A stretch of 64,000 bases of DNA from positions 5,073 to 69,072 of the forward strand of contig MEXP01000009.1 in the NCBI GenBank assembly GCA_001773725.1, given 5' to 3'. The translations under genes were made by a program, and so were the position numbers. Within the stretch, counting starts at the first letter, position 1. Every line of letters starts with the position of its first letter. This DNA comes from Candidatus Amesbacteria bacterium RIFCSPLOWO2_01_FULL_49_25 (GTDB lineage Bacteria > Patescibacteriota > Microgenomatia > CAZETR01 > Amesbacteraceae). Shown piece after piece: positions 12,179 through 59,189 of this stretch. The notes beneath the pieces are model-generated. The model saw only the letters and a list, made by a program, of their open reading frames with translations. It had not been told where the DNA came from and did not search any database.

Positions 12179-12194
12179 TCTAGTTGTAAATTTT

Positions 12195-14848: not shown

Positions 14849-14877
<29 letters not shown>
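13360..14877 (-). CDS. Large polytopic membrane protein of unknown function with C-terminal soluble domain (possible GT-C transferase/polymerase)
   Basis: ~11 hydrophobic segments, 'HYVDHPGTP' loop after TM1, C-terminal ~130 aa hydrophilic; no confident family. Confidence 0.4.
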
Positions 14878-17158
<2,281 letters not shown>

Positions 17159-17160
17159 GG

Positions 17161-18138: not shown

Positions 18139-18466
18139 TTTTATAAGCGATATTTCTGGAAATTTCCTCTATTTGCCGTTGGAGAGATTTTATACCAACA
18201 TGATTCTGAAAACCCAGATATGCCAATATCATGAAGGCTACTATCGATAAAAGATCCATGGCTCGAGTGACAAACAGCCTGGCTAATATGGGATCTAGTA
18301 TCCGGGGGTTAAGAGCAAAATAGGTGAACGACACCCAAACCAATAACCAGTACACAAACTCTCGGCGAGTAATGTTCCCCTGTTTGCGATGGACGAACGC
18401 CACATATAGCATAAATGCGGCAAACATGACGGCAATGATTTGTATTCCTAGGAGAGCCTCCACCAT
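18113..18466 (-). CDS. Small 4-TM membrane protein, DUF2304-like
   Basis: 117 aa, hydrophobic helices with 'GNITRREFVYWLLVW' spacing; such proteins typically flank DPM1/GtrB-like GT2 genes. Confidence 0.5.
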   Translation of the reverse strand: MVEALLGIQIIAVMFAAFMLYVAFVHRKQGNITRREFVYWLLVWVSFTYFALNPRILDPILARLFVTRAMDLLSIVAFMILAYLGFQNHVGIKSLQRQIEEISRNIAYKNAKTKKRP

Positions 18467-19113
18467 ATAGTATTTGCAAGAATTTTTAGTGCGTCTATTA
18501 TGGACGTGCCTTTGTATTTGTCAATGTAGATGGGTTCGATGGGAAATTCAGTATATTTTAATAGGTGTTTATTTTTTCCCAGCTTGGCAATCATTTCCGT
18601 TTCAACACCATACCGAGGTGATGTCCATTTTAAAAGTTGATATGCCCTGAATGAAAGAGCCCTAAATCCGGATATCAAATCTGAAACGTATACGCCAAAG
18701 AGGACATTGATATAAATTGAGGCTAATTTATTGCCGAAGAGCCTGACGAATGGGGTGTGTAAAGACGGACGGCGCGAACCGATGACCACGTCAAACTTTT
18801 GATTGAGCAGATGGATAAACATGCTTATGTCTTGGGGTAAATGTTGGCCGTCTGTATCCATGAAGATTATAGCCTCGGCTTTGTGAGAGAAAGCGTATTC
18901 AGCGCCGGTTTTTAAGGCAGATCCTTTTCCCAGGTTGACAGGGTGACGAAGCAGAGTGACCGTTTTTGACTGGGTAGGGATTTGGACCGGTTGAACCGAA
19001 CCGTCATCGATAACCACAATATTTAAGTGGGGATGGAGTGAGAGGATAGCCGTTAAGACATCTACAAATCTAGCCCCCTCGTTGTAAACCGGCAATATTA
19101 ACCAAATGTTCAT
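18448..19113 (-). CDS. DPM1-like GT2 glycosyltransferase (polyprenyl-phosphate hexose synthase-like, soluble)
   Basis: 'IWLILPVYNEGARF', 'IVVIDDGSVQP', 'FMDTDGQHLPQDI'; start set at MNIWLIL. Confidence 0.8.
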   Translation of the reverse strand: MNIWLILPVYNEGARFVDVLTAILSLHPHLNIVVIDDGSVQPVQIPTQSKTVTLLRHPVNLGKGSALKTGAEYAFSHKAEAIIFMDTDGQHLPQDISMFIHLLNQKFDVVIGSRRPSLHTPFVRLFGNKLASIYINVLFGVYVSDLISGFRALSFRAYQLLKWTSPRYGVETEMIAKLGKNKHLLKYTEFPIEPIYIDKYKGTSIIDALKILANTIWWRLS

Positions 19114-19117
19114 ATTC

Positions 19118-20224
19118 TCATCCAACCCAATAGCCCCGAACAAACAGTGCTACCACCTCAAAAAAGAATAAAGCCAGGATCGCAAAAAAGAAGAGACGGA
19201 AGCGTGGTTTGGCGCTAGCTATCTGACCCAAGATAATAAAAGACGGAAAGCAGGCAAGTACATATCTTGGGAGAGAGACGAAACTGCCGGTAAAAGTGGG
19301 TACTAAGTAAGCTGCCAAATTAAAAATTATGTAAGAAGGGCGAATTTTTTTGAATGCAGATAAAATTGTTGTGAATAAAAACATTAAAGCGGTAACCAAT
19401 TCCAGCCAGAGGGTGTAATAAATAGGGTCGGTTTTGGTTACGGTAACCACCATTCTGGTGTACCGGTAAAAAACCTGAGGAAGAAGGATAATTCGCTCAC
19501 TTCTAAACTGCCCGTAGAGTTTTTGGACGTGAATGAAAGCCAGGGAATCACCGACAGTATTTTGCAAAAAAAGCATATATGAAATCAATCCTAAAGGAAC
19601 TAAAAAAGCTGGTAATAGGCCAATCAGGCTGCGCCTTTGCTGCCAAAACTCTAATAGAAGAGCGGGAAACATAAAAATACCCACGAAGCGAGTGTTGGCC
19701 GCTAAGGCGCCCAGGACGGCCGCAATCCACCAGCGGCGGGCACGAGCATAGTAAAAGGAGGACAATACTAAAAGTATAAATAAACTTTCGGTATATACAG
19801 CGCCAAAATAAAAACTGGTGGGAAATGCGAGCAGGGCTAAAAGCGAATACCTGGCCGCTGCTGAAGAATAATCTAACTCAATCAGACGAACAAAAAAAAT
19901 GCATGCAAATAGAAACGCAACGGAAGAAATTATTACCCCAGTTAGAGTGTCGTTTTTAATCTGGGGAATCAAGAGTTTCATAATATTCGGGTAAAGCGGG
20001 AAGAAGGCCTCTTCGGCATAGCCGTACCCGTTTTTGGCAATCCTGATGTAATGGTTGCCGTCGAAATTGGCCCGGGAGTATAAAAGTGGATTCTGCAAAA
20101 ATGTCTTTGTACCAATGCCCAAATAAGTTTCTCTCAGGGGCAATAGTTTGGGGGCCAATATGGCAATGACTATGATCGCTAGTTGCCAAATCGAGTAGTA
20201 TTTAATTATTGTCTTTGTCTTCAT
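19118..20224 (-). CDS. Polytopic membrane protein resembling PIG-V/Gpi18-type mannosyltransferase (GT76-like)
   Basis: 'ANFDGNHYIRIAKNGYGYAEEAFFPLYP' matches the W/FDxxHYLxIAxxGY...E..AFFPLxP signature of PIG-V family; ~9 TM. Confidence 0.5.
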   Translation of the reverse strand: MKTKTIIKYYSIWQLAIIVIAILAPKLLPLRETYLGIGTKTFLQNPLLYSRANFDGNHYIRIAKNGYGYAEEAFFPLYPNIMKLLIPQIKNDTLTGVIISSVAFLFACIFFVRLIELDYSSAAARYSLLALLAFPTSFYFGAVYTESLFILLVLSSFYYARARRWWIAAVLGALAANTRFVGIFMFPALLLEFWQQRRSLIGLLPAFLVPLGLISYMLFLQNTVGDSLAFIHVQKLYGQFRSERIILLPQVFYRYTRMVVTVTKTDPIYYTLWLELVTALMFLFTTILSAFKKIRPSYIIFNLAAYLVPTFTGSFVSLPRYVLACFPSFIILGQIASAKPRFRLFFFAILALFFFEVVALFVRGYWVG

Positions 20225-21210
20225 AGTAATTCCTCATAAACCATTAAAGTTTGGCTGGCGGTTTTTTCCCAGGAAAAGGTGTTGACGACGACTCTTTTTT
20301 GCTTAATGGCCGCAGATAGGCTTGAGACGATGTTATCTACGCTGTAAGGGTCGAAGTAAACTACTGTGTCGCCGGCGACTTCTGGTAGAGATCCGGACCG
20401 ACTGCAGGCAACGGGCGTGCCACAGGCTTGCGCTTCCAAAACCGGCAAGCCGAAACCTTCGGATAACGACGGCTGGCAGTAAACAGAGGCAAGGTTATAT
20501 ATATCAACCAAGTCGTCAACAAATCCCAGGCGGGTAACTCCGGACCAATTAATATCCCGTAAATGCCGGAGTTCGGGATGGGATAAATTTAATTTCTCCA
20601 TTTCCAAGGCTTGTTTTCCGACTATCACGAGGGGAAGACTTAATTTTTTACATGCCTGAACCAGTAAGGGAATGTTCTTGTTGTAGTTGATGTCGCCGAC
20701 GTAGAGAACAAATTTGGAAGGTAAATTATATTTGTTTGCCGGGTGAGGAATTTTTTTAAACACGGGGTCGGCGGCTAGATGAACAAGGCGGAGCTTGTGC
20801 GGAGGGACACCCAAAAACTTGTTTATATTGGTTAGGGAGTAAAAAGAGTCGGTAATGACCCGGTCGACGTTGGATAAAGATAGTTTCTGAAACTGTAAAT
20901 TTATCCATCCGCGAACGCCCGGAGGGTAATGGTCGGGGAACACCAGGGGTATGACGTCATGGATAGTGACCACTGTTTTAGTACTTTTTATTATGGGTAA
21001 AGAGGCTGTAAACAGATCAAAAAACGGGTAGTGCACAATATCTAAATTTGAATTTCTAAATTCTAAATAACTTCCGATTTCTAATATTTCAAATCCTAAA
21101 TCAGAAGCCATTGGTTTCATGTGATTCAAGAGTCTTTTGGTATAGAAACCGACGCCGCGGACGGCGTGACCTGAAGAAAGTGGGGTAATGACGAAACCAA
21201 CTCGGGTCAT
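20221..21210 (-). CDS. GT4 family (group 1) glycosyltransferase
   Basis: C-terminal 'SLSEGFGLPVLEAQACGTPVACSRSGSLPEV' (EX7E-type GT4 motif); alternative start MTRVGF chosen for ATGA overlap with next gene. Confidence 0.85.
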   Translation of the reverse strand: MTRVGFVITPLSSGHAVRGVGFYTKRLLNHMKPMASDLGFEILEIGSYLEFRNSNLDIVHYPFFDLFTASLPIIKSTKTVVTIHDVIPLVFPDHYPPGVRGWINLQFQKLSLSNVDRVITDSFYSLTNINKFLGVPPHKLRLVHLAADPVFKKIPHPANKYNLPSKFVLYVGDINYNKNIPLLVQACKKLSLPLVIVGKQALEMEKLNLSHPELRHLRDINWSGVTRLGFVDDLVDIYNLASVYCQPSLSEGFGLPVLEAQACGTPVACSRSGSLPEVAGDTVVYFDPYSVDNIVSSLSAAIKQKRVVVNTFSWEKTASQTLMVYEELL

Positions 21211-21986
21211 GATGGATACTTGGTATGCTGCCAATACTTGATATAGGACACGGGGTGGATGAGCCCTGAGAAAACAGCGAAAATAAATCCGGGCGTGCCA
21301 TCGACATAGCCGCGGTGACGAATGTAAATGCCCAGGAAAGTTGATAGGGGTTTGAGAAAGAGATACAGAAAAGTATTTGTTAACCCAAAATTAACTTTTT
21401 TGTTTTCAAGTTGTGAAGAAATGAACGAGCTGTAGCGATTGAAGCCTTCCATATATTTTTCGAAACTGGTATCCCGGTAGTGGAGAAGATCATGCTTGAG
21501 ATGACCGATTGGTGGTTCAACGGTGGCTTGTTCGTGTACATCCTTGGCGGGGAGCCGACCGAGGCCGCGGCGATAAAGACGAAGAGTAGGATCGGGATAC
21601 TGACCTCCCTTGGATAAAAAGCGAGTAAGAAACCAATTACGACGATTGATCCAGTACCCATTGATTGGTGATTGTCCATCTTTGATTGCTATGGTGATTT
21701 CTTGTGCCAACTCCGGGGAAACGACCTCGTCTGCGTCCAACTGCAATATCCATTCACCTTTCGCATTATCGATGGAGACGTTCTTGGTGATATGGAAGTT
21801 GTCCTGATGAGAAACTGGTATCACTCTGGTGCCAAATTTTTTGGCAATTTCTACTGTTTTGTCAGTTGATTTTTCATCGGCTATGACTATCTCATCAGCG
21901 ATTGTTTTGACAGACTCTAAACAGCGGCCAAGTTTTTCTTGTTCGTTACGCGCGGCCAAAACAACTGATAATTTGAGAGTTTTCAT
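21207..21986 (-). CDS. GT2 family glycosyltransferase
   Basis: 'LSVVLAARNEQEKLGRCLESVKTIADEIVIADEKSTDKT', 'ILQLDADEVV'. Confidence 0.85.
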   Translation of the reverse strand: MKTLKLSVVLAARNEQEKLGRCLESVKTIADEIVIADEKSTDKTVEIAKKFGTRVIPVSHQDNFHITKNVSIDNAKGEWILQLDADEVVSPELAQEITIAIKDGQSPINGYWINRRNWFLTRFLSKGGQYPDPTLRLYRRGLGRLPAKDVHEQATVEPPIGHLKHDLLHYRDTSFEKYMEGFNRYSSFISSQLENKKVNFGLTNTFLYLFLKPLSTFLGIYIRHRGYVDGTPGFIFAVFSGLIHPVSYIKYWQHTKYPS

Positions 21987-23653
21987 TAATTTGAGACTAT
22001 TTTAAAGGCGGGCTGGTCATTTGGGAAATAAAAGGTTTTGACGATGTTGACCCCGACAGAAGGTATATCTTCGGGAGCGGCAACTATAAGTGTGGAGTGG
22101 ATATCGCGAACTTTTTCCCAAGGGGCCGATTCGAAGTGAAATTTGTCAAAATCGCGGACGGTGGAAAAATTGAATTTATCTCGGAACGTCAATTGGTGAC
22201 GATCCTGAAATTTTTGGGGTGGATACTGGGAATAAAACAAAAATAAGATATAGGGTTGATCGTATTTATCGGTCACCCATATTTGGGAGTAGCGATTCTG
22301 AACCGATTGGACATAAGATACCAGTTCCTTAAAGCCGTTTTCCCAGGCGGCAGGGTATGTTTGAGGATAATGGACATAGTATTGGTGTAAATACCTTTTA
22401 AATTGCCAAATATAAATAGTAATTAAAATAATTAACAACGAAGAAAAAACAATTTTATTAGAACCTCTCGCCAATTGCAGGAAAAAATATAATCCTGAGG
22501 AAGTAATAATAGTCATGGGAATAACCAGGTTTTGAGCACGCAGGGCATTGGGGGTTTGGAAGGTCATAGCTGAGGCTATGGGAGCTATCAATAGCCATAA
22601 CCAGATGGTAGCTTGTAGCTTATAGCTTTTAGAGTTTAGAACGTAATAGATTCCTAGGGCAAAAAAGATAAAGTCGGTGAGATAAAAGAGGCCGGTTTCG
22701 GGGATGCGATTGCGTTCTATCATGTCGCCGTTTACAAACAGGAAATTGCCATCGAAATGGTCGGTGTAATTTTTGACGAACTGAATAACATAAATAACCG
22801 GGCGGTTGTGAAGCAGACGTGACAGAAGCGAGTTCCAATCGGAATGCTGGCCGCGAAGTTGTTCGACACGACGCAAAGGACCCTCGTCTGCAAGGAGACC
22901 GACACCGGATAGTCGGGAAGAAGCGTCGCTACTTGCAAGTGAAAGTATGAGAGGAGCTAATAACAATAGCAGCAGTAGAAAATTGGTGACTATTTGTTTG
23001 GGATACTTTAGTAATGTTTTGAAGTAAAGAATTGCCAATCCCAAACCAAGAAGTGGGGCTATGACGCGGGTAGATTGGTAAAAGTACATGGACAATACGA
23101 AGTTCAAACTACTTAGGCTTAGAGAAATCAACTCTCTATTTTTTAGCCATTTGACGAAAAAGAGGATGCCCAGAAGTAATAGGGTGGTGGAGACATTGAC
23201 TTCCCAAGCGCCTCGAGAGAAGTGCAAGTGCCATGGCGAGATAGCTAACATAAATGCGACGATTTCTTCAATCCTCAAATTCTGAATCCCAAATCTCAAA
23301 TAATTTTCAAAATTCAAATTTGCGAAGATTTCTTTGGTGAGCATATACACTAGAAATACAGCAGTTACTCCGAATAGTGCTGAAGGCAGGCGGATGGCGA
23401 ATTCTGTGAGGCCGAAAACTTTAACAAAAGGGATAAGGAGATATGAGTACCCGGCGGGTTTGAAGTCACCGAAAGATTCCAGATTGACGGGCAAGATGTG
23501 GCCATGTTCGTCCTTGCCGGTTAAAAGAAGTGAGTAGGCGTTGTAGCCTAAGGCGGCTTCGTCTGCATTTAACCCCGATGGAAAAAACGAAATTTTATGC
23601 AGCCGCAGAATTGCGGCCAGAATTAATAATAAAACGAGTAAATATTTTTTCAT
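21986..23653 (-). CDS. GT-C-fold membrane glycosyltransferase, PMT_2/ArnT-like (family A)
   Basis: N-terminal TM then 'GLNADEAALGYNAYSLLLTGKDEHGHILPV...FGLTEFAIRLPSALFG' (DE loop motif of GT39/GT83 enzymes), ~11-13 TM, C-terminal soluble domain. Confidence 0.8.
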   Translation of the reverse strand: MKKYLLVLLLILAAILRLHKISFFPSGLNADEAALGYNAYSLLLTGKDEHGHILPVNLESFGDFKPAGYSYLLIPFVKVFGLTEFAIRLPSALFGVTAVFLVYMLTKEIFANLNFENYLRFGIQNLRIEEIVAFMLAISPWHLHFSRGAWEVNVSTTLLLLGILFFVKWLKNRELISLSLSSLNFVLSMYFYQSTRVIAPLLGLGLAILYFKTLLKYPKQIVTNFLLLLLLLAPLILSLASSDASSRLSGVGLLADEGPLRRVEQLRGQHSDWNSLLSRLLHNRPVIYVIQFVKNYTDHFDGNFLFVNGDMIERNRIPETGLFYLTDFIFFALGIYYVLNSKSYKLQATIWLWLLIAPIASAMTFQTPNALRAQNLVIPMTIITSSGLYFFLQLARGSNKIVFSSLLIILITIYIWQFKRYLHQYYVHYPQTYPAAWENGFKELVSYVQSVQNRYSQIWVTDKYDQPYILFLFYSQYPPQKFQDRHQLTFRDKFNFSTVRDFDKFHFESAPWEKVRDIHSTLIVAAPEDIPSVGVNIVKTFYFPNDQPAFKIVSN

Positions 23654-25233
23654 CGAAGTCCGACCGCACGCAAGGCGATTTGGCCATTGGGAAAATTAAT
23701 ATCGGCAAATCTTTCTATGCCTGGAATGTTTAAATCCTTCTCTGGCAGTTCGTACTGGCCACCGATAAAAAGAGTTGAGGTAAGCCCCCGGTCGGAAGGC
23801 CAATAAATGGGGCGGAATTCAAATCTGTCCAAGCGACTGACACTTCCGACGTCTCTTTGAGGATTGGCTTGAAACTTATTTTGAGATTGATATATTTTCG
23901 GGTCGATGCGCAGGTAGAAAAGAGTAAAAATATACGGTTGACCATATTGGGAAGTAAAAATGATTTTTTGATAGCGGGAATAATTATCGGCTGCCAACTT
24001 GAGCGCGGGTTTATAAGGAGATAGCCAGTCTGAGGCAAAGTAGTGGGGATAATGGACGAAGTAAAGGTCGAGGAGGTAAAGAAGAAAGAATAAAAGAACG
24101 GGAAAGTATAAGAATATAAGCAGTTTTTTTGACAATATCTTAGAGAGACCAAGTCCAGAGATGATGATTAATGGGATTATCATGGGTAAAGAGCGGACGC
24201 CGGAGACTATGTCCCGGGAAAGGGCGGAGGGAAGCGGAGCCAGGAGCAACCAGGCTAAGATGAGCCTGGAAAGAGGTGACTGAGATTTGAGAAGAAGAAT
24301 TATACCTATGAAGAGGGTTATTACTTCGGGAAGGTGGAGATAACCGTAATAAGGAGTGGAATGTCGTGGATTGGACCAGTCACCATTGATAAATAAAAAT
24401 TGGGACGAAAAGTGATTTAGATAACGTTGGGCTATTCCCCTGCCCTGATCCAGTAGTTCCGAATGAAATAAATAGTAGGAAAGATTTTTGGTGGGAGAGT
24501 TGTCTTGACGCATTATTTCGCTGACAACCGCATCGGGGCGAGTATAACCGAAGACGCTGAAAACCTTGAGGCGGCCAGACTCGGTCCCGATTTTTAGCAA
24601 TATTGGAAGCAGGATGAAAAGTATAACTAGAAAAGGTTTAATTAAGTTTTTCAATATCGGTCTGTAAATGAAAAGAAGGCTAATTATTAAAAGTGGGGTA
24701 AAAAGTTTGGCTCCCTGATAGGCCCAAAATGTCAAACCAAAAAACAATGACGAGGAGTAATTTTTTTTCTTTAGAAATAAAAGCACTGCCAGGGAGGTGA
24801 GAAGTAAGGATAAGTTTGCTTCCCAAGCCCCACGGGAAAAATGAATGGCCCAGGGGTTAATGGCTATCATCAGCGCTGATGAAAGAGAAAATGCCTTACC
24901 TTTCTGGATTTTAACAAGCAAGTAAATAACAGGGATTAGCAATGTTCCAAAAATAGCCGAGGGGAGGCGGGTGGCAAATTCGGTAAGACCTAAAACTTTT
25001 ATAATTGGGGTGGTAAAGTAAATGTATAAGCCCGGCTTATAATCACCGAACGATTTGAAGACGATAGGCATCACTTGGGAGTGTTCATCCCGTCCAGTCT
25101 TGAGTATTGAATATGCGTTGTATCCCAGGGCGGCTTCGTCCCAGGTAAATCCCAGTGGTCTGGAGTCCAGCCTGTGAATCCGCAAAAAAAGTCCAAAAAT
25201 TATAATGGGCAATAATATGATCAGCGGCTTCAT
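23650..25233 (-). CDS. GT-C-fold membrane glycosyltransferase, PMT_2/ArnT-like (family A)
   Basis: 'GFTWDEAALGYNAYSILKTGRDEHSQVMPI...FGLTEFATRLPSAIFG'; ATGA overlap with both neighbours. Confidence 0.8.
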   Translation of the reverse strand: MKPLIILLPIIIFGLFLRIHRLDSRPLGFTWDEAALGYNAYSILKTGRDEHSQVMPIVFKSFGDYKPGLYIYFTTPIIKVLGLTEFATRLPSAIFGTLLIPVIYLLVKIQKGKAFSLSSALMIAINPWAIHFSRGAWEANLSLLLTSLAVLLFLKKKNYSSSLFFGLTFWAYQGAKLFTPLLIISLLFIYRPILKNLIKPFLVILFILLPILLKIGTESGRLKVFSVFGYTRPDAVVSEIMRQDNSPTKNLSYYLFHSELLDQGRGIAQRYLNHFSSQFLFINGDWSNPRHSTPYYGYLHLPEVITLFIGIILLLKSQSPLSRLILAWLLLAPLPSALSRDIVSGVRSLPMIIPLIIISGLGLSKILSKKLLIFLYFPVLLFFLLYLLDLYFVHYPHYFASDWLSPYKPALKLAADNYSRYQKIIFTSQYGQPYIFTLFYLRIDPKIYQSQNKFQANPQRDVGSVSRLDRFEFRPIYWPSDRGLTSTLFIGGQYELPEKDLNIPGIERFADINFPNGQIALRAVGLR

Positions 25234-26777
25234 AGTTCCTTAATAATGAATGCGGGTTTGGAGTCAAGGAAATTGATGCGGGTAAGGACGGTGCCGGGAG
25301 TTTCGTTGTCGGGGCTGGAAATTACCAGATACTTAGGCCCTATCGGTAAAGATGCCACTGCTTGGGACATTTCCCAATCATTGACGAATTTTATTTTGTC
25401 CAGTTTATTAACCCAATACCAGTTGTCGTGAAAATCCCAATTTTTTGATTTGGAGAAATTAGCGGGTTCCCATGGCCAATAGAAAGCAACAAACTCATGG
25501 GGTTCTCCATAGCGCTTAGTGAAAACGATTTGGTCGTATTGACTATAGTGATCTTTGACAAATTGAACGGCCTCTTTGTAGCCATACTGCCAGGCCCATG
25601 AATAGCGGGTTTGGTAGTTTGCAGATACGGGATTGATGTAATACTCGAGGCTAAGCAACAGAATAACTGGAAGAGCTATTTGCAAAACGTTGAATTTTTT
25701 GGCCGCTGTCCAAATTCCCATCGAGGTTACCACTATGGTGGCGGGAAGCATGGTTATGGCGCGAAGAACATGGGGCGAATCGCGAGTGAGAGAGCCGGGA
25801 ATGGGGGCTAAGAGAAGCCACACGATTATCAATTTGAAATTTGATTTTTTAAATTTGAAAAGCAGTGCGATTAAGCCCAGGTAAAAAAAGGGTAGGGCAA
25901 CCAAGTAAAGCAGACCATAGTTGGGAATGCTGAATTGGTAGTGAGAACCGCCGGAAATAAATAAGAATTTAGGGTTGAAATGATTTAGATAATTAACAGA
26001 GAAACGATAGGCCAAATAGGTAGCTTTGTTGTAAAGAAGGCGACCCCCGGGTCGACTTCGCAGCTGATTAATTTGGACGGTTGCTCCTTCATCCAAAAGA
26101 GTCAGCCACTTAAACCTAGCTTGGCCGGACGGGGAAAGAAGCTGAATGAAAACCGGGATGAATAGTAAAAGTGTAACTGCGACCGTAAGAAAGTTAATTT
26201 TGACATTTTTTCGATTAAGCAATAAATAAGAAAACAAGAATAAGGGTGTAAAAATGCGAAAACTATTGTAGGTCCAGGCAGAGAGACCTAAAAGGAAAAT
26301 CCCTAAAAACAAGCGGCGATAAAGAAGCAGGGTGGCCCCGAGGGTAAATAGAAGTATAGCTAAATTTGCCTCAACGGCAACACGAGACAAAAACAGCGGC
26401 CAAGGGGAAATTGCGACGAGCAGGGCAGTAAGGATAGCCATAAAACGAGAAGAGACCCGGCGAGAAAGAAGGTAAACTGCGGCTATCATAAGAATGCCGG
26501 AAACTATGGATGGGAAGCGAACTCCGAGTGGGTTGAGACCGAATATTGAAATGGAGGGAATGGCAGAATAAATATATCCAGGGAGTTTGAAGTCTCCGTA
26601 GGCACGAAAAATTGTGGGCAGAATAGACCCCCACTCGTCCCGGCCTGTTTTGAGAAGAGAATAAGCGTTGTAGCCTAAAGAGACCTCGTCCCAATTAAGA
26701 CTGGGGGGGAACTGGTAAATATAAATGAGACGAAAAAACGCTCCCAGTAAAATCAACAGGATTAAGTGCCTAGGCAC
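25230..26777 (-). CDS. GT-C-fold membrane glycosyltransferase, PMT_2/ArnT-like (family A)
   Basis: 'SLNWDEVSLGYNAYSLLKTGRDEWGSILPT...FGLNPLGVRFPSIVSG'. Confidence 0.8.
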   Translation of the reverse strand: MPRHLILLILLGAFFRLIYIYQFPPSLNWDEVSLGYNAYSLLKTGRDEWGSILPTIFRAYGDFKLPGYIYSAIPSISIFGLNPLGVRFPSIVSGILMIAAVYLLSRRVSSRFMAILTALLVAISPWPLFLSRVAVEANLAILLFTLGATLLLYRRLFLGIFLLGLSAWTYNSFRIFTPLFLFSYLLLNRKNVKINFLTVAVTLLLFIPVFIQLLSPSGQARFKWLTLLDEGATVQINQLRSRPGGRLLYNKATYLAYRFSVNYLNHFNPKFLFISGGSHYQFSIPNYGLLYLVALPFFYLGLIALLFKFKKSNFKLIIVWLLLAPIPGSLTRDSPHVLRAITMLPATIVVTSMGIWTAAKKFNVLQIALPVILLLSLEYYINPVSANYQTRYSWAWQYGYKEAVQFVKDHYSQYDQIVFTKRYGEPHEFVAFYWPWEPANFSKSKNWDFHDNWYWVNKLDKIKFVNDWEMSQAVASLPIGPKYLVISSPDNETPGTVLTRINFLDSKPAFIIKEL

Positions 26778-28365
26778 GGTATTTTTTTTTGGCGAGAATT
26801 AACCAAGAACCTGCGCTTAGTAATGTAAGTGAAGATACCAGATTGCCCATGAGCCTGACAAAGGAATCTTTAAATTCCAGTCGGATATCGTGCCAGCCTT
26901 GAGGCACGTCTAATGCAATTAGGCCAGTCTCAGGCTGGATGAGGACTTTTTGTTCTATTCCGTCGACTATTGATGTCCAACCCGGGAAAAAAACTTGAGG
27001 GAATATAGTAAGAGCAGACTGTGATTGAATGAACAAACGGTAGTTTCCACTGTGAGCTGAAAAGTGAGCTATAGATACAAAACCATCTCCCGCACTTATG
27101 GAGGGGAGCGATGGGGCAAAGGATTGGGGAAGACGAGGGGCGGATTTGGGCCAAAAGTCTGAAAGGGCAGATGACCGCTGTTCATCCCAAAGTTTGCCTG
27201 AGAAGTACTGGGTGTCGTTGAGATTCAGCCAAATATCTGGGCCAAAAAAATTGGCGCTGAGTAACAACAGAAAAGTAGATGAGAAGATAAGTGTAAGTTT
27301 GGGAGAGAAAAGTTTGGTGAGAACACCGGCTGTAAGAGATAAAAAGAAGGTTGACATGGAGAGAAACCGCCAGGGAAATTGGACAAAAGGCAGGCCAGGT
27401 ATAATTTTCCAAAACACCTCAGATTTACCGTGGGTGAGAAATAACGCGATCAGGGCCAGAATAACGAATAATGAAGTGGGAATTATGTGTTTTTTTGACT
27501 TTTTGACGAGAAAAGCGAAGGGTACCACTACTAGAGCAATTATCCAGTGGAGGTGGCCAATTGAGAAACTCATGGTGTCGTTGGGCCCCCAGTTGGAGCC
27601 GCCGTAGCCCCAGAAGCGGGAAAGAAAAAGCTGACTTAAAGTCGTCCAATGAAGACTATAATCGTAATAACCGGCGGTAGTTTGGGTGAGAGTTACCAAG
27701 TTACTTTCAAAAATTACCGGTAAAAGATAAAAAGAACTCAAGACCAGAGATAATAAGCCGGCAGGGATAAATTTCCAGTCCCAGCTTCTAACCAGCCACC
27801 ATATACCCATAAATGGCAGAAACATAAATAATGAGAGGTTGTGGGTGATAAGGAGAAGAAATAGAGAGAAGGAAAAGAGAAGGTATTTTTTCTTTTCGAT
27901 AAATAACAGAATGAGAGGGAAAAATACGAAGGACAACGCTTCCGGGAGAGCACCTCTTACCCAGACGTCGACTGCCCGGTATGGGGCGTATGTGTAAAAC
28001 AAAGCGCTAACAAGGGCTCCATCACTCCCCCAGAATTCTTTTGCCAATAAGTACATGGAGATGCCTGACAAGACTAATGAAAGAATGAAAACTGATTTGA
28101 CACTGTCTAGGACGGGGAAACCGGAAAGGCGGAAGATTGTTCCCAGCCAATAGGGGAGTTGGCCATAGTAGTTGAAGAGGGGCTCGCCGTAGCCTAGACC
28201 TGCGTCCGGAGCCCAGCGGCAAGGAAAAATACCTTCGGCAGTACATTTATCGAATTCGTACTGGCGAAAGACATGAAAGTCATGCATGGTATAAATCCCC
28301 GGCCGGAGCATGAGCGCGAACGCCGGAATTGTGAGAATGATCAGGAGGAGGATTTTTTTGGCCAT
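26770..28365 (-). CDS. Polytopic membrane protein family D (YfhO/PTPS-related-like GT-C candidate)
   Basis: 'MHDFHVFRQYEFDKCTAEGIFPCRWAPDAGLGYGEPLFNYYGQLPY', 13+ TM; paralog of 52415-54061; start re-set to MAKKILL (28365). Confidence 0.5.
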   Translation of the reverse strand: MAKKILLLIILTIPAFALMLRPGIYTMHDFHVFRQYEFDKCTAEGIFPCRWAPDAGLGYGEPLFNYYGQLPYWLGTIFRLSGFPVLDSVKSVFILSLVLSGISMYLLAKEFWGSDGALVSALFYTYAPYRAVDVWVRGALPEALSFVFFPLILLFIEKKKYLLFSFSLFLLLITHNLSLFMFLPFMGIWWLVRSWDWKFIPAGLLSLVLSSFYLLPVIFESNLVTLTQTTAGYYDYSLHWTTLSQLFLSRFWGYGGSNWGPNDTMSFSIGHLHWIIALVVVPFAFLVKKSKKHIIPTSLFVILALIALFLTHGKSEVFWKIIPGLPFVQFPWRFLSMSTFFLSLTAGVLTKLFSPKLTLIFSSTFLLLLSANFFGPDIWLNLNDTQYFSGKLWDEQRSSALSDFWPKSAPRLPQSFAPSLPSISAGDGFVSIAHFSAHSGNYRLFIQSQSALTIFPQVFFPGWTSIVDGIEQKVLIQPETGLIALDVPQGWHDIRLEFKDSFVRLMGNLVSSLTLLSAGSWLILAKKKYRA

Positions 28366-29573
28366 AGGGTGAACCAGGTAAATAAATTGATGACGCTTAG
28401 GGCTTTGGTGAAAATGGGAGTGTAAAGGGCGATGGCGAAGGGCATGGTTGGAGCGAACCACATGTTGTATTGATTGGCCAAAAAGGTAAAGGACAGAACG
28501 GCGTATTGAATCCAGATTTTGCGGCCGATAACTATTAGCCAGGACATAAGGGGAAACAGGGGGTACATGTAGCGCTCGTGCATACGAACGGAAAAGAGAA
28601 AGAAACCAAAGTAGACGATCAGTAATTGACTGACTAAATTATGCTCAGAGGGGTTTTTCCAAATGGATCGAAGAGTAACTGCAAATATCAATAACAATAG
28701 GAACACTGAAATTATATTGGCGGGGATGGTGAGAAAGAGCGAGGTGTCAGGAACTAGATCTATAGGGAAGAAGACGTGCCAGAAATTGAAGGCGTTGACG
28801 GTGATAAATGGTGATTCTCCCGGCAAGATCCGATTCAAATAGAGTTTGGTTAGCCAAAACGGAAGATCGAGTCTGGGATGGAAGGGAAAAAATAACAGTA
28901 ACGAGGACGCGCCGACCGACGCCAGATAAGTCCAGAAGTTTTTAGGAAATTTCCTGATTGCATAAATTGTGAATACTATTAAGGCTGGAGACCATGAAGC
29001 TTTGGTGACGAGTGAAGTCCCCAACAGAAATCCGGAAAGGACCAGGCGTTTTTCGAAGAGAAAGATCAGGCTCCAAACGGCCAAGGCGGCGACGATACAA
29101 TCGTTTTGCCCCCAAAGAGCGGAGTTGTACCACAAAGGAGGGTTAAGCAAATAGACTAAGCCGACTAGCTGGGAAACCTTGCTGGATTTACCAATTTTGA
29201 TAATAGCGGCAAAAAGAGCTATGTCCCCTAAAACGGAGGGCAGCTTGAGGCTGACTACGTCACCCCATCTTTGCCACCACCAAACTAATGTCGAGGGGAA
29301 AAAGGGGATTTTCAAATTGAGCTGCCAGAATAATTTGTTACCAAAGTCGTTGAGCTGATATGAAAGTGTATAAAGATAAACACTGCCGGCTGGTTGGTTG
29401 GGGCGGCTCTGAGGCCAGAAAACGGATCGCGGTAAATCATAAAAATCGACAAGGCCGAGTTTGGAGGCATTCCCGGCCCAATTCCAGCCGTTATGCAAAT
29501 CACCGTGTTTAGTGAATGTCGACACCCACAATCGCCAAGCAATTAACAAGACAATGAGAATTTTATATTTCAT
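28341..29573 (-). CDS. Polytopic membrane protein family E (unknown; possible GT-C)
   Basis: 'FTKHGDLHNGWNWAGNAS' loop after TM1, ~10 TM; shares 'FT[SK]H[PG]D' loop with 40769-41932. Confidence 0.4.
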   Translation of the reverse strand: MKYKILIVLLIAWRLWVSTFTKHGDLHNGWNWAGNASKLGLVDFYDLPRSVFWPQSRPNQPAGSVYLYTLSYQLNDFGNKLFWQLNLKIPFFPSTLVWWWQRWGDVVSLKLPSVLGDIALFAAIIKIGKSSKVSQLVGLVYLLNPPLWYNSALWGQNDCIVAALAVWSLIFLFEKRLVLSGFLLGTSLVTKASWSPALIVFTIYAIRKFPKNFWTYLASVGASSLLLFFPFHPRLDLPFWLTKLYLNRILPGESPFITVNAFNFWHVFFPIDLVPDTSLFLTIPANIISVFLLLLIFAVTLRSIWKNPSEHNLVSQLLIVYFGFFLFSVRMHERYMYPLFPLMSWLIVIGRKIWIQYAVLSFTFLANQYNMWFAPTMPFAIALYTPIFTKALSVINLFTWFTLWPKKSSS

Positions 29574-31072
29574 CTGGGATTGATGACAGCAAAGCGATAA
29601 TCGGCCAAGTCAAATAAGATATGCTGGCTGGCGGGAAAATCTCCAAAACTACTGACTAACAAGGCGTTTTGTAACTTACCTTCCCGTTCCCAATGAAAAT
29701 CGTGAAACTCATATTTGCCCAAATTCCAGCTTTCCAACTGGTCGACGTATAATTTGTCTGCTTTTTCGTAACGTCTCCAGTCCTGTGAGTACTTTTGAAA
29801 ATCGGCCGGATCCCATTTGCTGTAAAAAGCTACAAAGATATGGGGAACAGTAAAGACGCGGGAAAAGTGAACGGAGTCGTATTTATCGGCCAGAGAAATG
29901 GCCTTGGTGAAGGCTTCTTTATAATTTACCCTTTGACTGTAGATCGGGTTTTTGGGGAGTTTGATCAGATATGTGTGGAGATAAAAACCAAATGAAGCCG
30001 CCAAAGCGAGCAGGAAGAGTTTTTGAAAGCGCAGGTTTGACAGGCCATAAGCAGACAGGAAGATGGGTAGAGGAAAGATTGCAATGGCCCGTTGGGCGTT
30101 TGAACTTTCGGTCAAGGCGGCGGGGACCGGGGCCAGCAGCGCCCAAAGCAAAAGGTAAGGCGATGGTTTGCCGCGGAGTATTAAAACGAGGCCCAATAAA
30201 ATGAATATTATTTCCAGGGGAAAGTGTAAGGGCATTCCGGGAAAGTTGAGGTGGGAAAAATCAGGCCGGTGACCGGTAAAGTAGAAGATGGGGGAAAAGT
30301 AAGATAGATAGTTGGTAAAAAACTGATCGGCATAAAAAACGTATTTATTGTCAAATAAAGTTGGAGGGGAATTTCGGTTGGTCAGATAATTTAAAGTGTT
30401 GGCTGAAGAAAAGATACCGACGTCGCTGGCGCGTACAAGAACTGCTTTGAGGTTAATGACTAAAGGTAGCAAGGCTAAAACAAATATCAAAAAAGCCGGT
30501 TTGAGTTGTCTGAGATAGACGATTATGCTTGCGACAAAAAAGACAGTAAAAATACGCCAGGAATGGTAAGTATACAGATTGATGCCCCAAACTAAAAAGG
30601 CCGGCCAGTAGCGTTTTTTTATAAACAAGTATAGACCGAGGGGGAAAAGTAATACCCCCAGTCCGCCTTCCCAGGCATTTCGGGATAGTTGGACATGCCA
30701 GGGGGAAATACTCATAAGCAGAGCGGCCAAAAAGGCCGTTTTTTGAGAAAATAATTCTTTGGCCAGAAGATAAACGACCAATATTGATAAGGTTCCCGCT
30801 ATCGCGGCCGGGAGGCGGACGGCGAACTCGTTTAACCCGAAGACGGCAACTGAAGGAATAGCGGCGTACATGTATAGAGGGGGTTTGAAATCACCAAATC
30901 CGCGAGGGAAGAGGGGGAAAAACTGACTCCAACTATCCCGTCCAGTTTTGAGGATCGAGTAGGCATCGTAGCCCTGACCGGCCTCATCGGCGGTGAATCC
31001 AGCCGGAAACTTATCCAACCAAAAAACTCTGAGAATTAGGCCTAAAAGGAGAACGAGAAGAAGGCGTTTCAT
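29570..31072 (-). CDS. GT-C-fold membrane glycosyltransferase, PMT_2/ArnT-like (family A)
   Basis: 'GFTADEAGQGYDAYSILKTGRDSWSQFFPL...FGLNEFAVRLPAAIAG'. Confidence 0.8.
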   Translation of the reverse strand: MKRLLLVLLLGLILRVFWLDKFPAGFTADEAGQGYDAYSILKTGRDSWSQFFPLFPRGFGDFKPPLYMYAAIPSVAVFGLNEFAVRLPAAIAGTLSILVVYLLAKELFSQKTAFLAALLMSISPWHVQLSRNAWEGGLGVLLFPLGLYLFIKKRYWPAFLVWGINLYTYHSWRIFTVFFVASIIVYLRQLKPAFLIFVLALLPLVINLKAVLVRASDVGIFSSANTLNYLTNRNSPPTLFDNKYVFYADQFFTNYLSYFSPIFYFTGHRPDFSHLNFPGMPLHFPLEIIFILLGLVLILRGKPSPYLLLWALLAPVPAALTESSNAQRAIAIFPLPIFLSAYGLSNLRFQKLFLLALAASFGFYLHTYLIKLPKNPIYSQRVNYKEAFTKAISLADKYDSVHFSRVFTVPHIFVAFYSKWDPADFQKYSQDWRRYEKADKLYVDQLESWNLGKYEFHDFHWEREGKLQNALLVSSFGDFPASQHILFDLADYRFAVINPR

Positions 31073-32649
31073 TTTTTGGTAAGAATATAGTAGAGAGGTA
31101 AGCCGGTGGGTGAAGTAATAATTTGGTCGACAGTTACTCCCCCAATGGTGCCAGTGCCAATTTCATCACGAACGCTGGCTAAATATGCTTCCCCGGGCTG
31201 AAGCAACTGAGAAAAGCCAGTTTCGGCTACACGATTTTTGAGGGTTCCAAAGTAATATTTGCCAATATTGTAGCCATCGAAGGCCGAGGTGGGATTTGAG
31301 TCTCTGAGAGGATATTCACTTTGGAACAGGGCCGGATCGTAGGCGAACCAGAAAAGAAAGCGGGATAAGGTAAATTCGTAAGTGTTATTGAGATAAACCC
31401 GTGAAAAATTGGAATCCTGGGACTTGAGATAAGTGAGGGCAGTTTTGAAGCCGGGTTGCCAGAATCGCCAAGCGTCGTGGGTCCACTCGATATAGTAACG
31501 GTATAAGTAAAAGCTGAAATTGAAAACGGCAAAGGCGCCCAATGCAAAAAAGAGCAGTTTTTTGGGTCGCAGATAGTTCAGGCCGGCGGCAGAGAGGAGG
31601 ATGAGGGGGGGGAGCATAACGATAAGCCGGCCGGCGTGATTACCGCCATCCTTGGTCATGGCCGAAGCAATTGGAGCAATTAATAGCCATCCCAAAATTA
31701 GTTTGTTTCTGAAAAAGAATAGGCCGAGAGCGACAGTGGCAACTTCAAAAAAATAAAGCATGCCCATGCCGCCGACAGCGTGGCGTAAGATGGGGTCACC
31801 TGAGAAAAACAGAAATTCCGTGGAAAAAGAACGGAGATAATTATTGAGGATTTCCTGGGGATAATAAATCAGGCGGTTACGAAAGACGGGGGTAAGCGGA
31901 GAGGAACTTTCTACCCGACGGCGAATGATATCTTCGCGCAGCGTAGAGTCGGAAAAGACGGAGATTTGAGAGAAGCGCCGGGAGGTAATTTGCTGGGATA
32001 AGCCGTAGATATAGGGTGTAAGTAAAACCAGACCAAAAATAATAGGCACGATGAGTTTGCCGGTTAAGGTTCGGAGAGAGATTAACAAAATCAAGATCAG
32101 GAGGGGGACGAAAACTGCCGCCACGGAATAAGCGTAAAAGGAAAGAGCAAGAAACAGGGCGGCCAGAGTATAACGACGACGCAAGAAAAGAGAAACTCCT
32201 AAAACTGAGAGAAGCATGACGGCCAAGTTATCGTTTGACCAGCGGGAAAACTGAATATGCCAGGGAGATATAGTTGTAAGTAACATGGCGGTGAAACCCA
32301 GGCGCTGACTTACAATCTGACTGCCTAAGACGAAAATAGCCAGGATGGAGAAAAGAGAAAGAATAACCATGGGTAAACGAACGGTCCACTCAGTGAGTCC
32401 AAAAACAGCCACGAAGGGAATTGTCAGATAGTGAAGAAGGGGAAGGCGATATTCGGAAAAGGATTGGAGAAATATGGGGAGAGGATGGCCAAGATAATCT
32501 TTGCCGGTTCTGAGGAGAGAATGGGCTTGGATGCCGACGTCAATTTCGTCACCCGTGAGCTCAACTGGCAGGTTATCCAGCTGATAGACACGAATCACTA
32601 CTGAAAATAACAAAATGAGACAGAAGAGAACCCACGAAAGGCGGGACAT
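31069..32649 (-). CDS. GT-C-fold membrane glycosyltransferase, PMT_2/ArnT-like (family A, divergent)
   Basis: 'LTGDEIDVGIQAHSLLRTGKDYLGHPLPI...FGLTEWTVRLPMVILS'. Confidence 0.75.
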   Translation of the reverse strand: MSRLSWVLFCLILLFSVVIRVYQLDNLPVELTGDEIDVGIQAHSLLRTGKDYLGHPLPIFLQSFSEYRLPLLHYLTIPFVAVFGLTEWTVRLPMVILSLFSILAIFVLGSQIVSQRLGFTAMLLTTISPWHIQFSRWSNDNLAVMLLSVLGVSLFLRRRYTLAALFLALSFYAYSVAAVFVPLLILILLISLRTLTGKLIVPIIFGLVLLTPYIYGLSQQITSRRFSQISVFSDSTLREDIIRRRVESSSPLTPVFRNRLIYYPQEILNNYLRSFSTEFLFFSGDPILRHAVGGMGMLYFFEVATVALGLFFFRNKLILGWLLIAPIASAMTKDGGNHAGRLIVMLPPLILLSAAGLNYLRPKKLLFFALGAFAVFNFSFYLYRYYIEWTHDAWRFWQPGFKTALTYLKSQDSNFSRVYLNNTYEFTLSRFLFWFAYDPALFQSEYPLRDSNPTSAFDGYNIGKYYFGTLKNRVAETGFSQLLQPGEAYLASVRDEIGTGTIGGVTVDQIITSPTGLPLYYILTKK

Positions 32650-34474: not shown

Positions 34475-35416
34475 TTACAAATTCTTAATCTCTTTAATTT
34501 CGTAAATGGGCTTTTGGCGAGATTCGAAGTAAACACGAACCATGAGTTCGGACATAAGACCCAACAGAATAAATGACACACCAATAAAAACTAGAAACAT
34601 GGCAATGATAAACATGGGGTTGTTGTGAACGAAGACGCCTAGAAATAATTTACGGTAGACAACTTGGACAAAGGCGGGGACAGAGAGGGCCAGGGAAACT
34701 AGACCGCCGGTGCCAAAGATGTAGGCTGGCTTGGTAGAGTAGGAGTCCAGAAATTTGGTGGTGATAATGTCGATAATAGTTTTGACCGACCGGGAATAAC
34801 CGTATTTGGAACGGCCGTGGGTACGGGGACGGTGACTGACTTCAATTTCTTTGAAGCGGGCTCCGCGCAGAACCACGAGTAGTGAAAGAAGGCGATGGTT
34901 TTCACCATACAAACGCATGTTGGCAAAAATCTCCCGACGAACAATACGTGTCGTACAGCCTAAATCCTTAATGGTGACATGAAAAATTGAACGGATGAGC
35001 CAGTTGGCTATTTTGGAAACAGCAACACGGATCAAGTCGTCGTGGCGGTGTTTGCGCCACCCAAAGATGGCGTCGGTATTGGAATCTAACATATCTAACA
35101 TTTTGAGCAAGTCGGGGGGAGGGTTTTGACCGTCGGCATCGAGAAAAGCGATAAAGTTTCCGCGGCTGTGGTCAATGCCGGCTGAAGTTGCTGCTGTTTG
35201 GCCGTGATTGTGCCAGAAATGAATCATCTTGACGGTAATATTGGGGTGGGGTGCCTGAGGAATAGAGGGGTTATCAGTACTACCGTCGTCTATGTAAATA
35301 ATTTCGGTAGTACCTCGGATCTGGGAGAGGGTGTGAACCAATTCCGAATGCAACTGGGTTAAATTTTCTTGTTCATTGTAAAAGGGAACGATAACGGAAA
35401 GTTTGGGATTGGCCAT
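34475..35416 (-). CDS. GtrB/ArnC/DPM1-like GT2 polyprenyl-phosphate sugar synthase with C-terminal TM helices
   Basis: 'LSVIVPFYNEQENL', 'IIYIDDGSTDN', 'FLDADGQNPP', two C-terminal hydrophobic helices ('LVSLALSVPAFVQVV', 'FIIAMFLVFIGVSFILLGL'). Confidence 0.8.
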   Translation of the reverse strand: MANPKLSVIVPFYNEQENLTQLHSELVHTLSQIRGTTEIIYIDDGSTDNPSIPQAPHPNITVKMIHFWHNHGQTAATSAGIDHSRGNFIAFLDADGQNPPPDLLKMLDMLDSNTDAIFGWRKHRHDDLIRVAVSKIANWLIRSIFHVTIKDLGCTTRIVRREIFANMRLYGENHRLLSLLVVLRGARFKEIEVSHRPRTHGRSKYGYSRSVKTIIDIITTKFLDSYSTKPAYIFGTGGLVSLALSVPAFVQVVYRKLFLGVFVHNNPMFIIAMFLVFIGVSFILLGLMSELMVRVYFESRQKPIYEIKEIKNL

Positions 35417-46993: not shown

Positions 46994-47198
46994 AATCGAA
47001 AGATAAAAGAGAAAAGACTTGGGTTCTGGCCTGATAAAAACCGGTAGTTAATTTGTTTTGAAATATCCTGGAGATAGGCGGTGGGTAATAGCTTCTGCGA
47101 ACAGAGATGGCGTAGATATCAAGATTCGTCAAGGAAAGAAGGCGAAGGTACGTTGATATTGTGAGTACCAAAGCGAGCACAATCCCGAATACTTTCAT
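46965..47198 (-). CDS. Hypothetical small protein (77 aa) with N-terminal hydrophobic segment
   Basis: ATG at 47196-47198 overlaps the TGA stop of the upstream family A gene (ATGA); 'MKVFGIVLALVLTISTYL' looks like a signal/TM helix; no homology recognised; occupies the largest intergenic gap. Confidence 0.25.
   Translation of the reverse strand: MKVFGIVLALVLTISTYLRLLSLTNLDIYAISVRRSYYPPPISRIFQNKLTTGFYQARTQVFSLLSFDYVFRTLGYE
46994..47194 (-). promoter_or_regulatory. Largest non-annotated gap in the minus-strand block (candidate internal promoter / small-ORF region)
   Basis: ~200 bp without a long ORF in the main gene frames between two family A genes; overlapped by the 77-aa ORF. Confidence 0.2.
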
Positions 47199-59187: not shown

Positions 59188-59189
59188 AA

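Follow-up and report, generated by a model that had tools for sequence, protein, structure and literature searches.

The stretch of DNA analysed here (the window; 64,000 nucleotides, positions 5,073 to 69,072 of contig MEXP01000009.1 of Candidatus Amesbacteria bacterium RIFCSPLOWO2_01_FULL_49_25) contains seven paralogous genes for membrane glycosyltransferases of the GT-C superfamily, which we refer to as family A, and five of these form an ordered array, the pentad, between positions 21986 and 32649 (Table 1; genes are named by their first coordinate where this suffices). A first-pass annotation made from the sequence alone had described eight such paralogs, and all eight open reading frames (ORFs) are indeed present in the ORF listing, each on the minus strand. 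Similarly, every motif variant quoted at that time was found (DEAALGYNAYS, DEVSLGYNAYS, DEAGQGYDAYS, DEIDVGIQAHS, DDESSHGYNAYS, DEADHAYNAYS and ADESIYIRW), and the shared loop motifs reappear in the family consensus as 'DEAxxGYNAYSILKTGxDEWG' and 'FGLNEFAVRLPSAxxG'. The number of family members, however, had to be corrected. An all-against-all BLASTP comparison groups seven of the ORFs (21986, 23650, 25230, 29570, 31069, 45464 and 47195) as true paralogs at 26-37% identity (E 1e-15 to 1e-75; for 45464 against the other copies, 1e-15 to 1e-34), and a hidden Markov model (HMM) built on 68 family A members assigns 370-656 bits to these seven. The remaining ORF, 54070-55575, gave no BLASTP match to any of the seven at 1e-3 and scored 36.7 bits with the family HMM, which is below the 56.8 bits of 60617-62071, a gene of another family. 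Family A is therefore counted as seven members, and 54070-55575 was rejected as the eighth and belongs elsewhere; for this protein, which has an Asp-Glu pair like that of family A despite lying outside the family, no PDB match was obtained by sequence.

The family is large, as an exhaustive profile search (E <= 1e-30) returned 7,929 representatives of clusters formed at 50% identity. The sources of the homologues are Microgenomates, namely Amesbacteria, Daviesbacteria, Shapirobacteria, Beckwithbacteria and 'Microgenomates group bacterium Gr01-1014_16', and where the homologues have been named they are annotated as 'glycosyltransferase family 39 protein', '4-amino-4-deoxy-L-arabinose transferase-like' or 'phospholipid carrier-dependent glycosyltransferase'. 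The protein encoded by 29570-31072 is also encoded on a 147.5-kb JGI metagenome contig (3300025327 / Ga0209751_10000025), and it is present on contigs indexed in 54 collection blocks, of which 24 contigs were read.

Five of the seven family A copies (29570, 47195, 31069, 25230 and 23650) pass the gathering threshold of the Pfam domain PMT_2 (PF13231; 26.1 bits), 21986 remains just below it, and 45464 has no match; the latter two are placed in the family because they are paralogous to the other copies by BLASTP and family HMM. The product of 29570 additionally matches Pfam STT3 and PMT. Compared with solved proteins, the family A profile yielded two matches only, ArnT (5EZM; E 0.006) and an STT3 subunit (E 0.009), and the alignment with ArnT includes a K-P-P segment that follows loop 1. 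An alignment of 68 sequences served to build an AlphaFold2 model of the 29570-31072 protein, which reached very high confidence (pLDDT 93.2, pTM 0.92), and a Foldseek search of the PDB with this model is headed by ArnT (E 1.4e-8, TM-score 0.56), followed by STT3, AglB, PglB, ALG12 and Pmt4, while transporters appear at E > 0.1 only, with TM-scores near 0.1. The GT-C identity proposed in the first-pass annotation is thus upheld by the structural comparison, and a reading as transporters finds no support. The model also contains a soluble alpha/beta domain at about residues 378-500, which corresponds to the hydrophilic C-terminal domain that had been noted earlier. Family A has the GT-C fold, as its members are polytopic membrane proteins with the GT-C helical core and with acidic residues in the first extracytoplasmic loop. 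The fold ranking makes no single characterised class clearly the nearest, PMT being no closer to family A than ALG12, AglB or ArnT. The seven genes are membrane GT-C glycosyltransferases that belong to a Microgenomates-rich, uncharacterised subfamily of the PMT_2/ArnT/oligosaccharyltransferase (OST)/PMT/ALG group.

The acidic residues in question are D29 and E30 (numbering of the 29570-31072 protein), which are identical in all seven copies and which in the model stand at the start of a loop-1 helix (residues 28-43) after the first transmembrane helix. None of the 68 homologues deviates at E30, and conservation at D29 amounts to 97%. An alignment of all eight ORFs shows that the Asp-Glu pair is invariant together with R15, P23, S39, R86, P124 and R131. 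Within family A, R15, D29, E30, D46, R86, R131, Y169, R214 and R328 are identical in 7/7 copies, E135 is present in six and replaced by Asp in 31069, and all ten of these residues are at least 97% conserved among the 68 homologues. The near-invariant Lys63 is replaced in three copies, by Arg in 31069, by Thr in 47195 and by Ser in 45464. The last of these, which retains D29, E30, R86, R131, E135, R214 and R328, lacks D61 as well as K63. Judged by these conserved residues, all seven copies look catalytically competent.

To place the array in a wider context, related loci were retrieved with 12 close orthologues as query and one genome per species. The scan returned 15 loci (designated by L and a number), and in each of them between two and nine genes of family A are clustered in no more than about 21 kb. 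Ten of these loci (L002, L005-L009, L011-L014; L007 stems from a complete Daviesbacteria chromosome of 820,589 bp) share with the window the same order of transcription of the orthologues, 31069, 29570, 25230, 23650 and 21986. Positional orthologues are 37-77% identical to the respective copy, which is higher than the 26-34% between the copies within the window; the locus of the closest related genome, L002, covers full-length orthologues of five copies at 61-77% identity, and 47195, outside the pentad, has orthologues of its own (P0031, P0064 and P0076; 45-49% identity). In neighbour-joining trees of 80 sequences with 40 bootstrap replicates, the members of each array position group together, with no member of another position among them, in 39-40 of the 40 replicates (own-clade support of 40/40 for 31069, 25230 and 21986, and 39/40 for 23650). 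Therefore, the five duplications took place before these lineages diverged, and both gene order and orthology have persisted. Within 21207-32649, neighbouring genes mostly overlap by 1-8 nt, an operon-like packing. The pentad is an ancient, tightly packed array of fixed order whose five positions represent distinct orthologous lineages that are conserved throughout Microgenomates. The earlier view that the copies are diverged rather than recent duplicates is borne out by the excess of orthologue over inter-copy identity and by the clade support, and the near-identity or assembly artefact that would have spoken against it is not observed, as the L002 orthologues are 61-77% identical.

Nine of the related loci (L003, L005, L006, L008, L010 and L012-L015) come from third-party annotation (TPA) records of metagenome-assembled genomes (MAGs) with the title 'uncultured Gammaproteobacteria bacterium'. 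They carry Microgenomates-type family A genes, and five of the nine (L005, L006, L008, L012 and L014) contain the full ordered pentad, with positional orthologues of 37-53% identity. The titles probably represent a wrong or placeholder taxonomy.

Table 1. Family A genes, genes flanking or inside the pentad, and GT-C candidates of the window by type of evidence (GT-C candidates given by first coordinate).
Feature	Coordinates	Strand	Remarks
Family A GT-C, pentad position 1	31069..32649	-	526 aa; PMT_2 30.9 bits; family HMM 469.6 bits
Family A GT-C, pentad position 2	29570..31072	-	500 aa; PMT_2 47.6 bits; copy chosen for modelling
Family A GT-C, pentad position 3	25230..26777	-	515 aa; PMT_2 28.4 bits; family HMM 533 bits
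Family A GT-C, pentad position 4	23650..25233	-	527 aa; PMT_2 27.8 bits; family HMM 611 bits
Family A GT-C, pentad position 5	21986..23653	-	555 aa; PMT_2 24.8 bits (just below cut-off); family HMM 656 bits
Family A GT-C, sixth paralog, outside pentad	47195..48799	-	534 aa; PMT_2 34.9 bits; family HMM 501 bits
Family A GT-C, seventh paralog, most divergent	45464..46993	-	509 aa; no Pfam match; family HMM 370.5 bits
Separate PMT_2/PMT-type GT-C, not family A	54070..55575	-	501 aa; PMT_2 27.0 bits, PMT 24.3 bits (both above cut-offs)
ArnC/GtrB/PgfS-like GT2 with C-terminal membrane helices, candidate polyprenyl-phosphate-sugar synthase	34475..35416	-	two genes upstream of pentad
Family C polytopic protein	26770..28461	-	between pentad positions 2 and 3; 40% identical to 52415-54061
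GT87/ALG6-8-like GT-C	28341..29573	-	between pentad positions 2 and 3; Pfam GT87 28.7 bits (cut-off 25), Alg6_Alg8 23.1 bits
Soluble GT2	21207..21986	-	directly downstream of pentad; GmaR-like, E 7.8e-18
GT4 of downstream flank	20221		between GT2 21207 and PIG-V-like 19118
PIG-V-like (Mannosyl_trans2) GT-C	19118..20224	-	downstream flank; Pfam 32.6 bits (cut-off 22.4)
PpgS-like GT2, candidate polyprenyl-phosphate-sugar synthase	18448..19143	-	downstream flank; NCBIfam PpgS 98.9 bits over full length (cut-off 370)
GT-C by Pfam above gathering score (10)	PMT_2: 23650, 25230, 29570, 31069, 47195, 54070, 59190, 60617; GT87: 28341; PIG-V-like: 19118
GT-C by sub-threshold match (4)	21986, 6951, 52415, 39286
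GT-C by paralogy (6)	45464, 2732, 4506, 26770, 57745, 62788

The surroundings of the pentad are likewise conserved among the loci, in the order GT2, GT2, GT4, polytopic protein, GT2, GT2, pentad, GT2, GT4, PIG-V-like, GT2, and genes resembling donor synthases lie on both sides of it in the window. Upstream, the product of 34475-35416 matches ArnC structures (9bhc, E 4.3e-40, residues 5-310) and GtrB sll0501 (E 9e-31) over its full length and scores 158.7 bits with the NCBIfam ArnC model (cut-off 529) and 119 bits with PgfS. It is separated from position 1 by a gene for an AsnB-like amidotransferase (32652-34472), which is found at this position only in the window and L002 and could function in sugar-acid amidation or amidino-sugar synthesis. 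Downstream, an orthologue of the soluble GT2 enzyme 21207-21986 follows position 5 in L005, L007, L008, L009, L012 and L013. The best solved relative of this enzyme is the Listeria flagellin O-GlcNAc transferase GmaR, with chondroitin synthase and the peptide S-glycosyltransferase SunS next in rank. The soluble GT2 paralogs 21207-21986, 42920-43669 and 44555-45451 share about 32% identity, and in the related genomes examined, position 5 is always followed by one of this group. The position of the PIG-V-like gene is kept in L005, L007, L009, L012 and L013, and an orthologue of the PpgS-like gene 18448-19143 comes after it in L005, L009 and L012. Of the genes inserted between positions 2 and 3, the family C gene 26770-28461 has an orthologue in the same place in L002, L008 and L013, and the GT87-like gene is also found in L002 and L009. 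The second family C protein, 52415-54061, has weak PTPS_related and PMT_2 matches, and in other genomes one or both family C genes either separate positions 2 and 3 (L008, L013) or immediately precede the pentad (L005). No Pfam or NCBIfam match was obtained for three further polytopic proteins of the window (13360-14877, 40769-41932 and 49406-50992; 505, 387 and 528 aa), and the position of 40769 upstream of the pentad is kept in L002, L007, L008 and L009.

Altogether, the window comprises 20 GT-C candidates. About seven of its GT2 enzymes resemble polyprenyl-phosphate-sugar synthases; 34475-35416 is a full-length ArnC/GtrB homologue, and PpgS, AglJ, ArnC and PgfS are the best or near-best NCBIfam matches of 18448, 11120, 62053, 55568, 56990 and 56311, well below the equivalog cut-offs. 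Further genes of the window encode Wzm and the ABC ATPase Wzt (with a weak Wzt_C match of 26.1 bits versus a cut-off of 30.4 bits), a Wzx-like Polysacc_synt_3 protein, GDP-mannose 4,6-dehydratase and an epimerase/reductase, four S-adenosylmethionine (SAM)-dependent methyltransferases and a hexapeptide-repeat transferase, a content typical of a polysaccharide locus. The Wzm/Wzt, 6-deoxyhexose and methyltransferase genes lie at 112-2392 and 15480-18138. We presume that the Wzm/Wzt and GDP-mannose 4,6-dehydratase set resembles loci for ABC-transporter-dependent 6-deoxyhexose polymers such as the common polysaccharide antigen of P. aeruginosa.

Other polytopic families accompany these genes. Family B (2732-4477, 4506-6362 and 6951-8888) consists of paralogs of 581-645 aa with 9-11 predicted membrane helices and 29-33% identity, with a methyltransferase gene (6293-7048) between the second and third; 6951 alone has a sub-threshold PMT_2 match (25.0 bits) and a weak match to the LIC_10190 family, and family B is probably another GT-C family. 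Family D is a third tandem set (57745, 59190 and 60617, together 57745-62071) plus 39286-40782, PMT_2-type GT-C proteins with 23-28% identity, among which 60617 has the top PMT_2 score of the window (56.7 bits). Among the 56 ORFs taken as genes, 53 are on the minus strand, intergenic gaps of more than 120 bp occur only twice in 64 kb, and no tRNA gene was found in the window. One of the three plus-strand genes, 11985-13373, encodes 462 aa with a GT2 domain at residues 228-391 and an N-terminal part that resembles the methyltransferase 14849-15565; its true start is probably further downstream, since about 190 nt of this ORF, in its listed extent, are shared with the minus-strand gene 11120-12178. 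The plus strand contains 25.9% G versus 18.2% C, with a GC skew of +0.18 throughout, and third codon positions of the coding strand hold 31.7% C versus 16.2% G. This strand disparity matches that reported for some Microgenomates genomes (PMC7143001).

Based on the make-up of a polysaccharide locus and the established logic of extracytoplasmic decoration, the pentad is read as five non-redundant enzymes acting on one glycoconjugate. It appears likely (with a probability of about 0.65) that they carry out the stepwise extracytoplasmic glycosylation of a conserved envelope glycoconjugate, the acceptor being most probably a polysaccharide or lipoglycan. A polyprenyl-phosphate-sugar synthase, a flippase and a GT-C enzyme constitute an established three-component route for such decoration (PMC11127046). 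Apart from the GT136 systems, the same principle applies to Gtr systems and to mycobacterial arabinan and mannan. By homology, the N-terminus of family A proteins would be cytoplasmic, and the Asp29-Glu30 loop and the 120-residue C-terminal alpha/beta domain would face outward. The donor, a polyprenyl-phosphate sugar as suggested by the ArnC/GtrB/PpgS-like genes of the locus and by the K-P-P segment aligned with ArnT, may be synthesised at the cytoplasmic face by the ArnC/GtrB/PpgS-like GT2 enzymes and would then be flipped across the membrane. The acceptor backbone, in turn, might be assembled in the cytoplasm by the GT2 and GT4 enzymes encoded nearby, and the Wzm/Wzt or Wzx-like transporters might export it. 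Outside the membrane, each family A enzyme would move a sugar from the lipid donor onto this acceptor, and the pentad enzymes would act in succession, differing in sugar, linkage or acceptor site. The analysis establishes the fold, the family, the conserved catalytic residues, the age of the duplications, the synteny and the proximity of donor-synthase-like genes; the kind of donor, the outward-facing active site, the succession of the enzymes and the preference for a glycan over a protein as acceptor are what we infer.

Several observations weigh against this proposal. Neither an initiating phosphoglycosyltransferase nor an LCP ligase or a GtrA-type flippase was recognised within the window, and some of its ORFs are without any annotation. 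The ArnC-like gene adjoins the pentad in the window and L002 only and not at the other loci. The matches to characterised families are all far below the equivalog cut-offs, so that no donor sugar or linkage is assigned. In addition, the GT2 family flanking the pentad resembles the protein-glycosylating enzymes GmaR and SunS, and PgfS, to which the ArnC-like gene is similar as well, is part of a system for protein O-glycosylation (PMC5856776), so that a protein acceptor has to be reckoned with.

In that case, the paralogs would be protein O-glycosyltransferases of the PMT/GT39 or Pgf kind, which use polyprenyl-phosphate donors to modify Ser/Thr residues of secreted or surface proteins such as pilins, an S-layer or adhesins and which are present in several copies to serve different protein substrates or to form heterodimers like yeast Pmt1-Pmt2. 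We consider this rather unlikely, as PMT is no closer in fold than ALG12, AglB or ArnT, family A is devoid of a MIR domain, the locus with its Wzm/Wzt, Wzx-like flippase, 6-deoxyhexose synthesis and methyltransferases is polysaccharide-like, and five orthologous positions in fixed order would be expected of a pathway with several steps rather than of protein modification by substrate-specific enzymes. The tight translational coupling and the fixed gene order would also suit the stoichiometric assembly of a hetero-oligomer in which some paralogs only are catalytic and the others have scaffold, acceptor-binding or flippase-associated roles, like Agl23 or the accessory subunits of OST. This arrangement is consistent with the matches of the N-terminal regions to TIGR03663, 'flippase activity-associated protein Agl23' (30-48 bits), and with the loss of Lys63 from the non-pentad copies 47195 and 45464, the latter also lacking Asp61; it nevertheless seems very unlikely, since the Asp-Glu pair and the conserved Arg/Glu/Tyr set are present in 7/7 copies, which is unexpected for non-catalytic subunits, and since the TIGR03663 scores are far below the 126-bit cut-off. 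That the array reflects recent duplications or an assembly artefact, or that the proteins are transporters instead of glycosyltransferases, has a practically negligible chance, and nothing was found in its favour. Identity between copies is 26-34% and the positions form separate clades in the bootstraps, the same protein occurs on contigs from 54 collection blocks (24 contigs read) and orthologous arrays exist in 15 species-level genomes, and transporters were retrieved by the fold search only at the E-values and TM-scores given above; BLASTP identities, fold search and clade bootstraps together rule out all three.

The stepwise glycosylation favoured here could be extended to a bolder proposal, which we regard as speculative and clearly unlikely: the pentad might be an obligate, lineage-defining assembly line, possibly a hetero-oligomer of five GT-C proteins, that builds a Microgenomates-specific envelope glycopolymer, which in these reduced and apparently host-dependent bacteria would replace teichoic-acid-like or S-layer glycans and mediate host attachment. 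If true, the luminal ALG pathway of eukaryotes would have a bacterial counterpart encoded in one operon.

The kind of enzyme is ordinary, and annotation pipelines already label family A as 'GT39 family'; new are the conserved pentad of fixed order and the exceptional density of GT-C genes. Nothing specific was found in the literature on arrays of GT-C/GT39/ArnT-like genes in the candidate phyla radiation (CPR), Patescibacteria or Microgenomates, and one Microgenomates genome paper notes '29 glycosyl transferases' without analysis (PMC7143001). CPR/Patescibacteria genomes are small (0.82 Mb in the related Daviesbacteria chromosome), and their surface chemistry is essentially uncharted although the proposed episymbiotic lifestyle depends on the surface. 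Against this background, the window presents an uninterrupted run of at least 64 kb of genes for glycan assembly with hardly any gaps. The conservation of pentad order and orthology across deeply diverged Microgenomates suggests that a complex envelope glycoconjugate is strongly selected for, and the pentad, the flanking GT2 and GT4 genes and the donor synthases provide a concrete gene set for reconstitution or glycomics. The value of the locus resides in its conserved organisation and gene dosage and not in a new mechanism.

Compared with known systems, family A, which belongs to the PMT_2 superfamily, falls outside ArnT, OST and the Emb/Aft families by equivalog scores, domain content and context. 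ArnT (GT83; undecaprenyl-phosphate-L-Ara4N:lipid A transferase; 5EZM/5F15), which heads the structural matches, is 12-13% identical to family A; the NCBIfam model PRK13279 gives 23.9 bits for 29570 (cut-off 567) and nothing for the other copies, an ArnC-like gene is present but ArnA, B, D, E and F genes are lacking from the window, and a single arnT gene stands against seven paralogs. To our knowledge, Microgenomates are considered monoderm and devoid of lipid A, and the acceptor of family A therefore differs from that of ArnT. With the GT39 enzymes (yeast Pmt1/2/4 and actinobacterial Pmt), the PF02366 match extends over about 70 residues in one copy only, and the MIR domain is missing. The Agl23-like family is matched only by the N-terminal 120-180 residues at 30-48 bits versus a cut-off of 126.25 (48.3 bits over 165 aa in 23650), and OST enzymes (GT66) are set apart by their WWDYG-type motif and large C-terminal domain, both absent from family A. 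The GtrA/GtrB/Gtr*, CsbB/YfhO and GT136 systems (PMC11127046) similarly combine a GT2 polyprenyl-phosphate-sugar synthase with a GT-C enzyme that acts after glycan export; they have one GT-C enzyme, whereas the family A locus has five to seven of a different GT-C family, and neither a GtrA nor a MATE flippase was recognised beside the array.

The resemblance to the mycobacterial Emb/Aft/Mpt/PimE series, including the embCAB tandem, that the first-pass annotation had put forward holds as an analogy of pathway logic, as in both cases several GT-C paralogs, partly in tandem, are linked to an envelope polysaccharide and polyprenyl-phosphate sugars, and the window has a GT87 (PimE-family) gene inside the array and a PpgS-like synthase in the conserved flank. 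It does not extend to family membership, which in mycobacteria is marked by family-specific domains such as Arabinose_trans/GT87, a C-terminal CBM and decaprenyl-phosphate donors. The better comparison is the luminal ALG series: ALG3/9/12/6/8/10 and the OST subunits STT3, AglB and PglB are 11-17% identical to family A, which differs from them in its bacterial, operon-encoded context.

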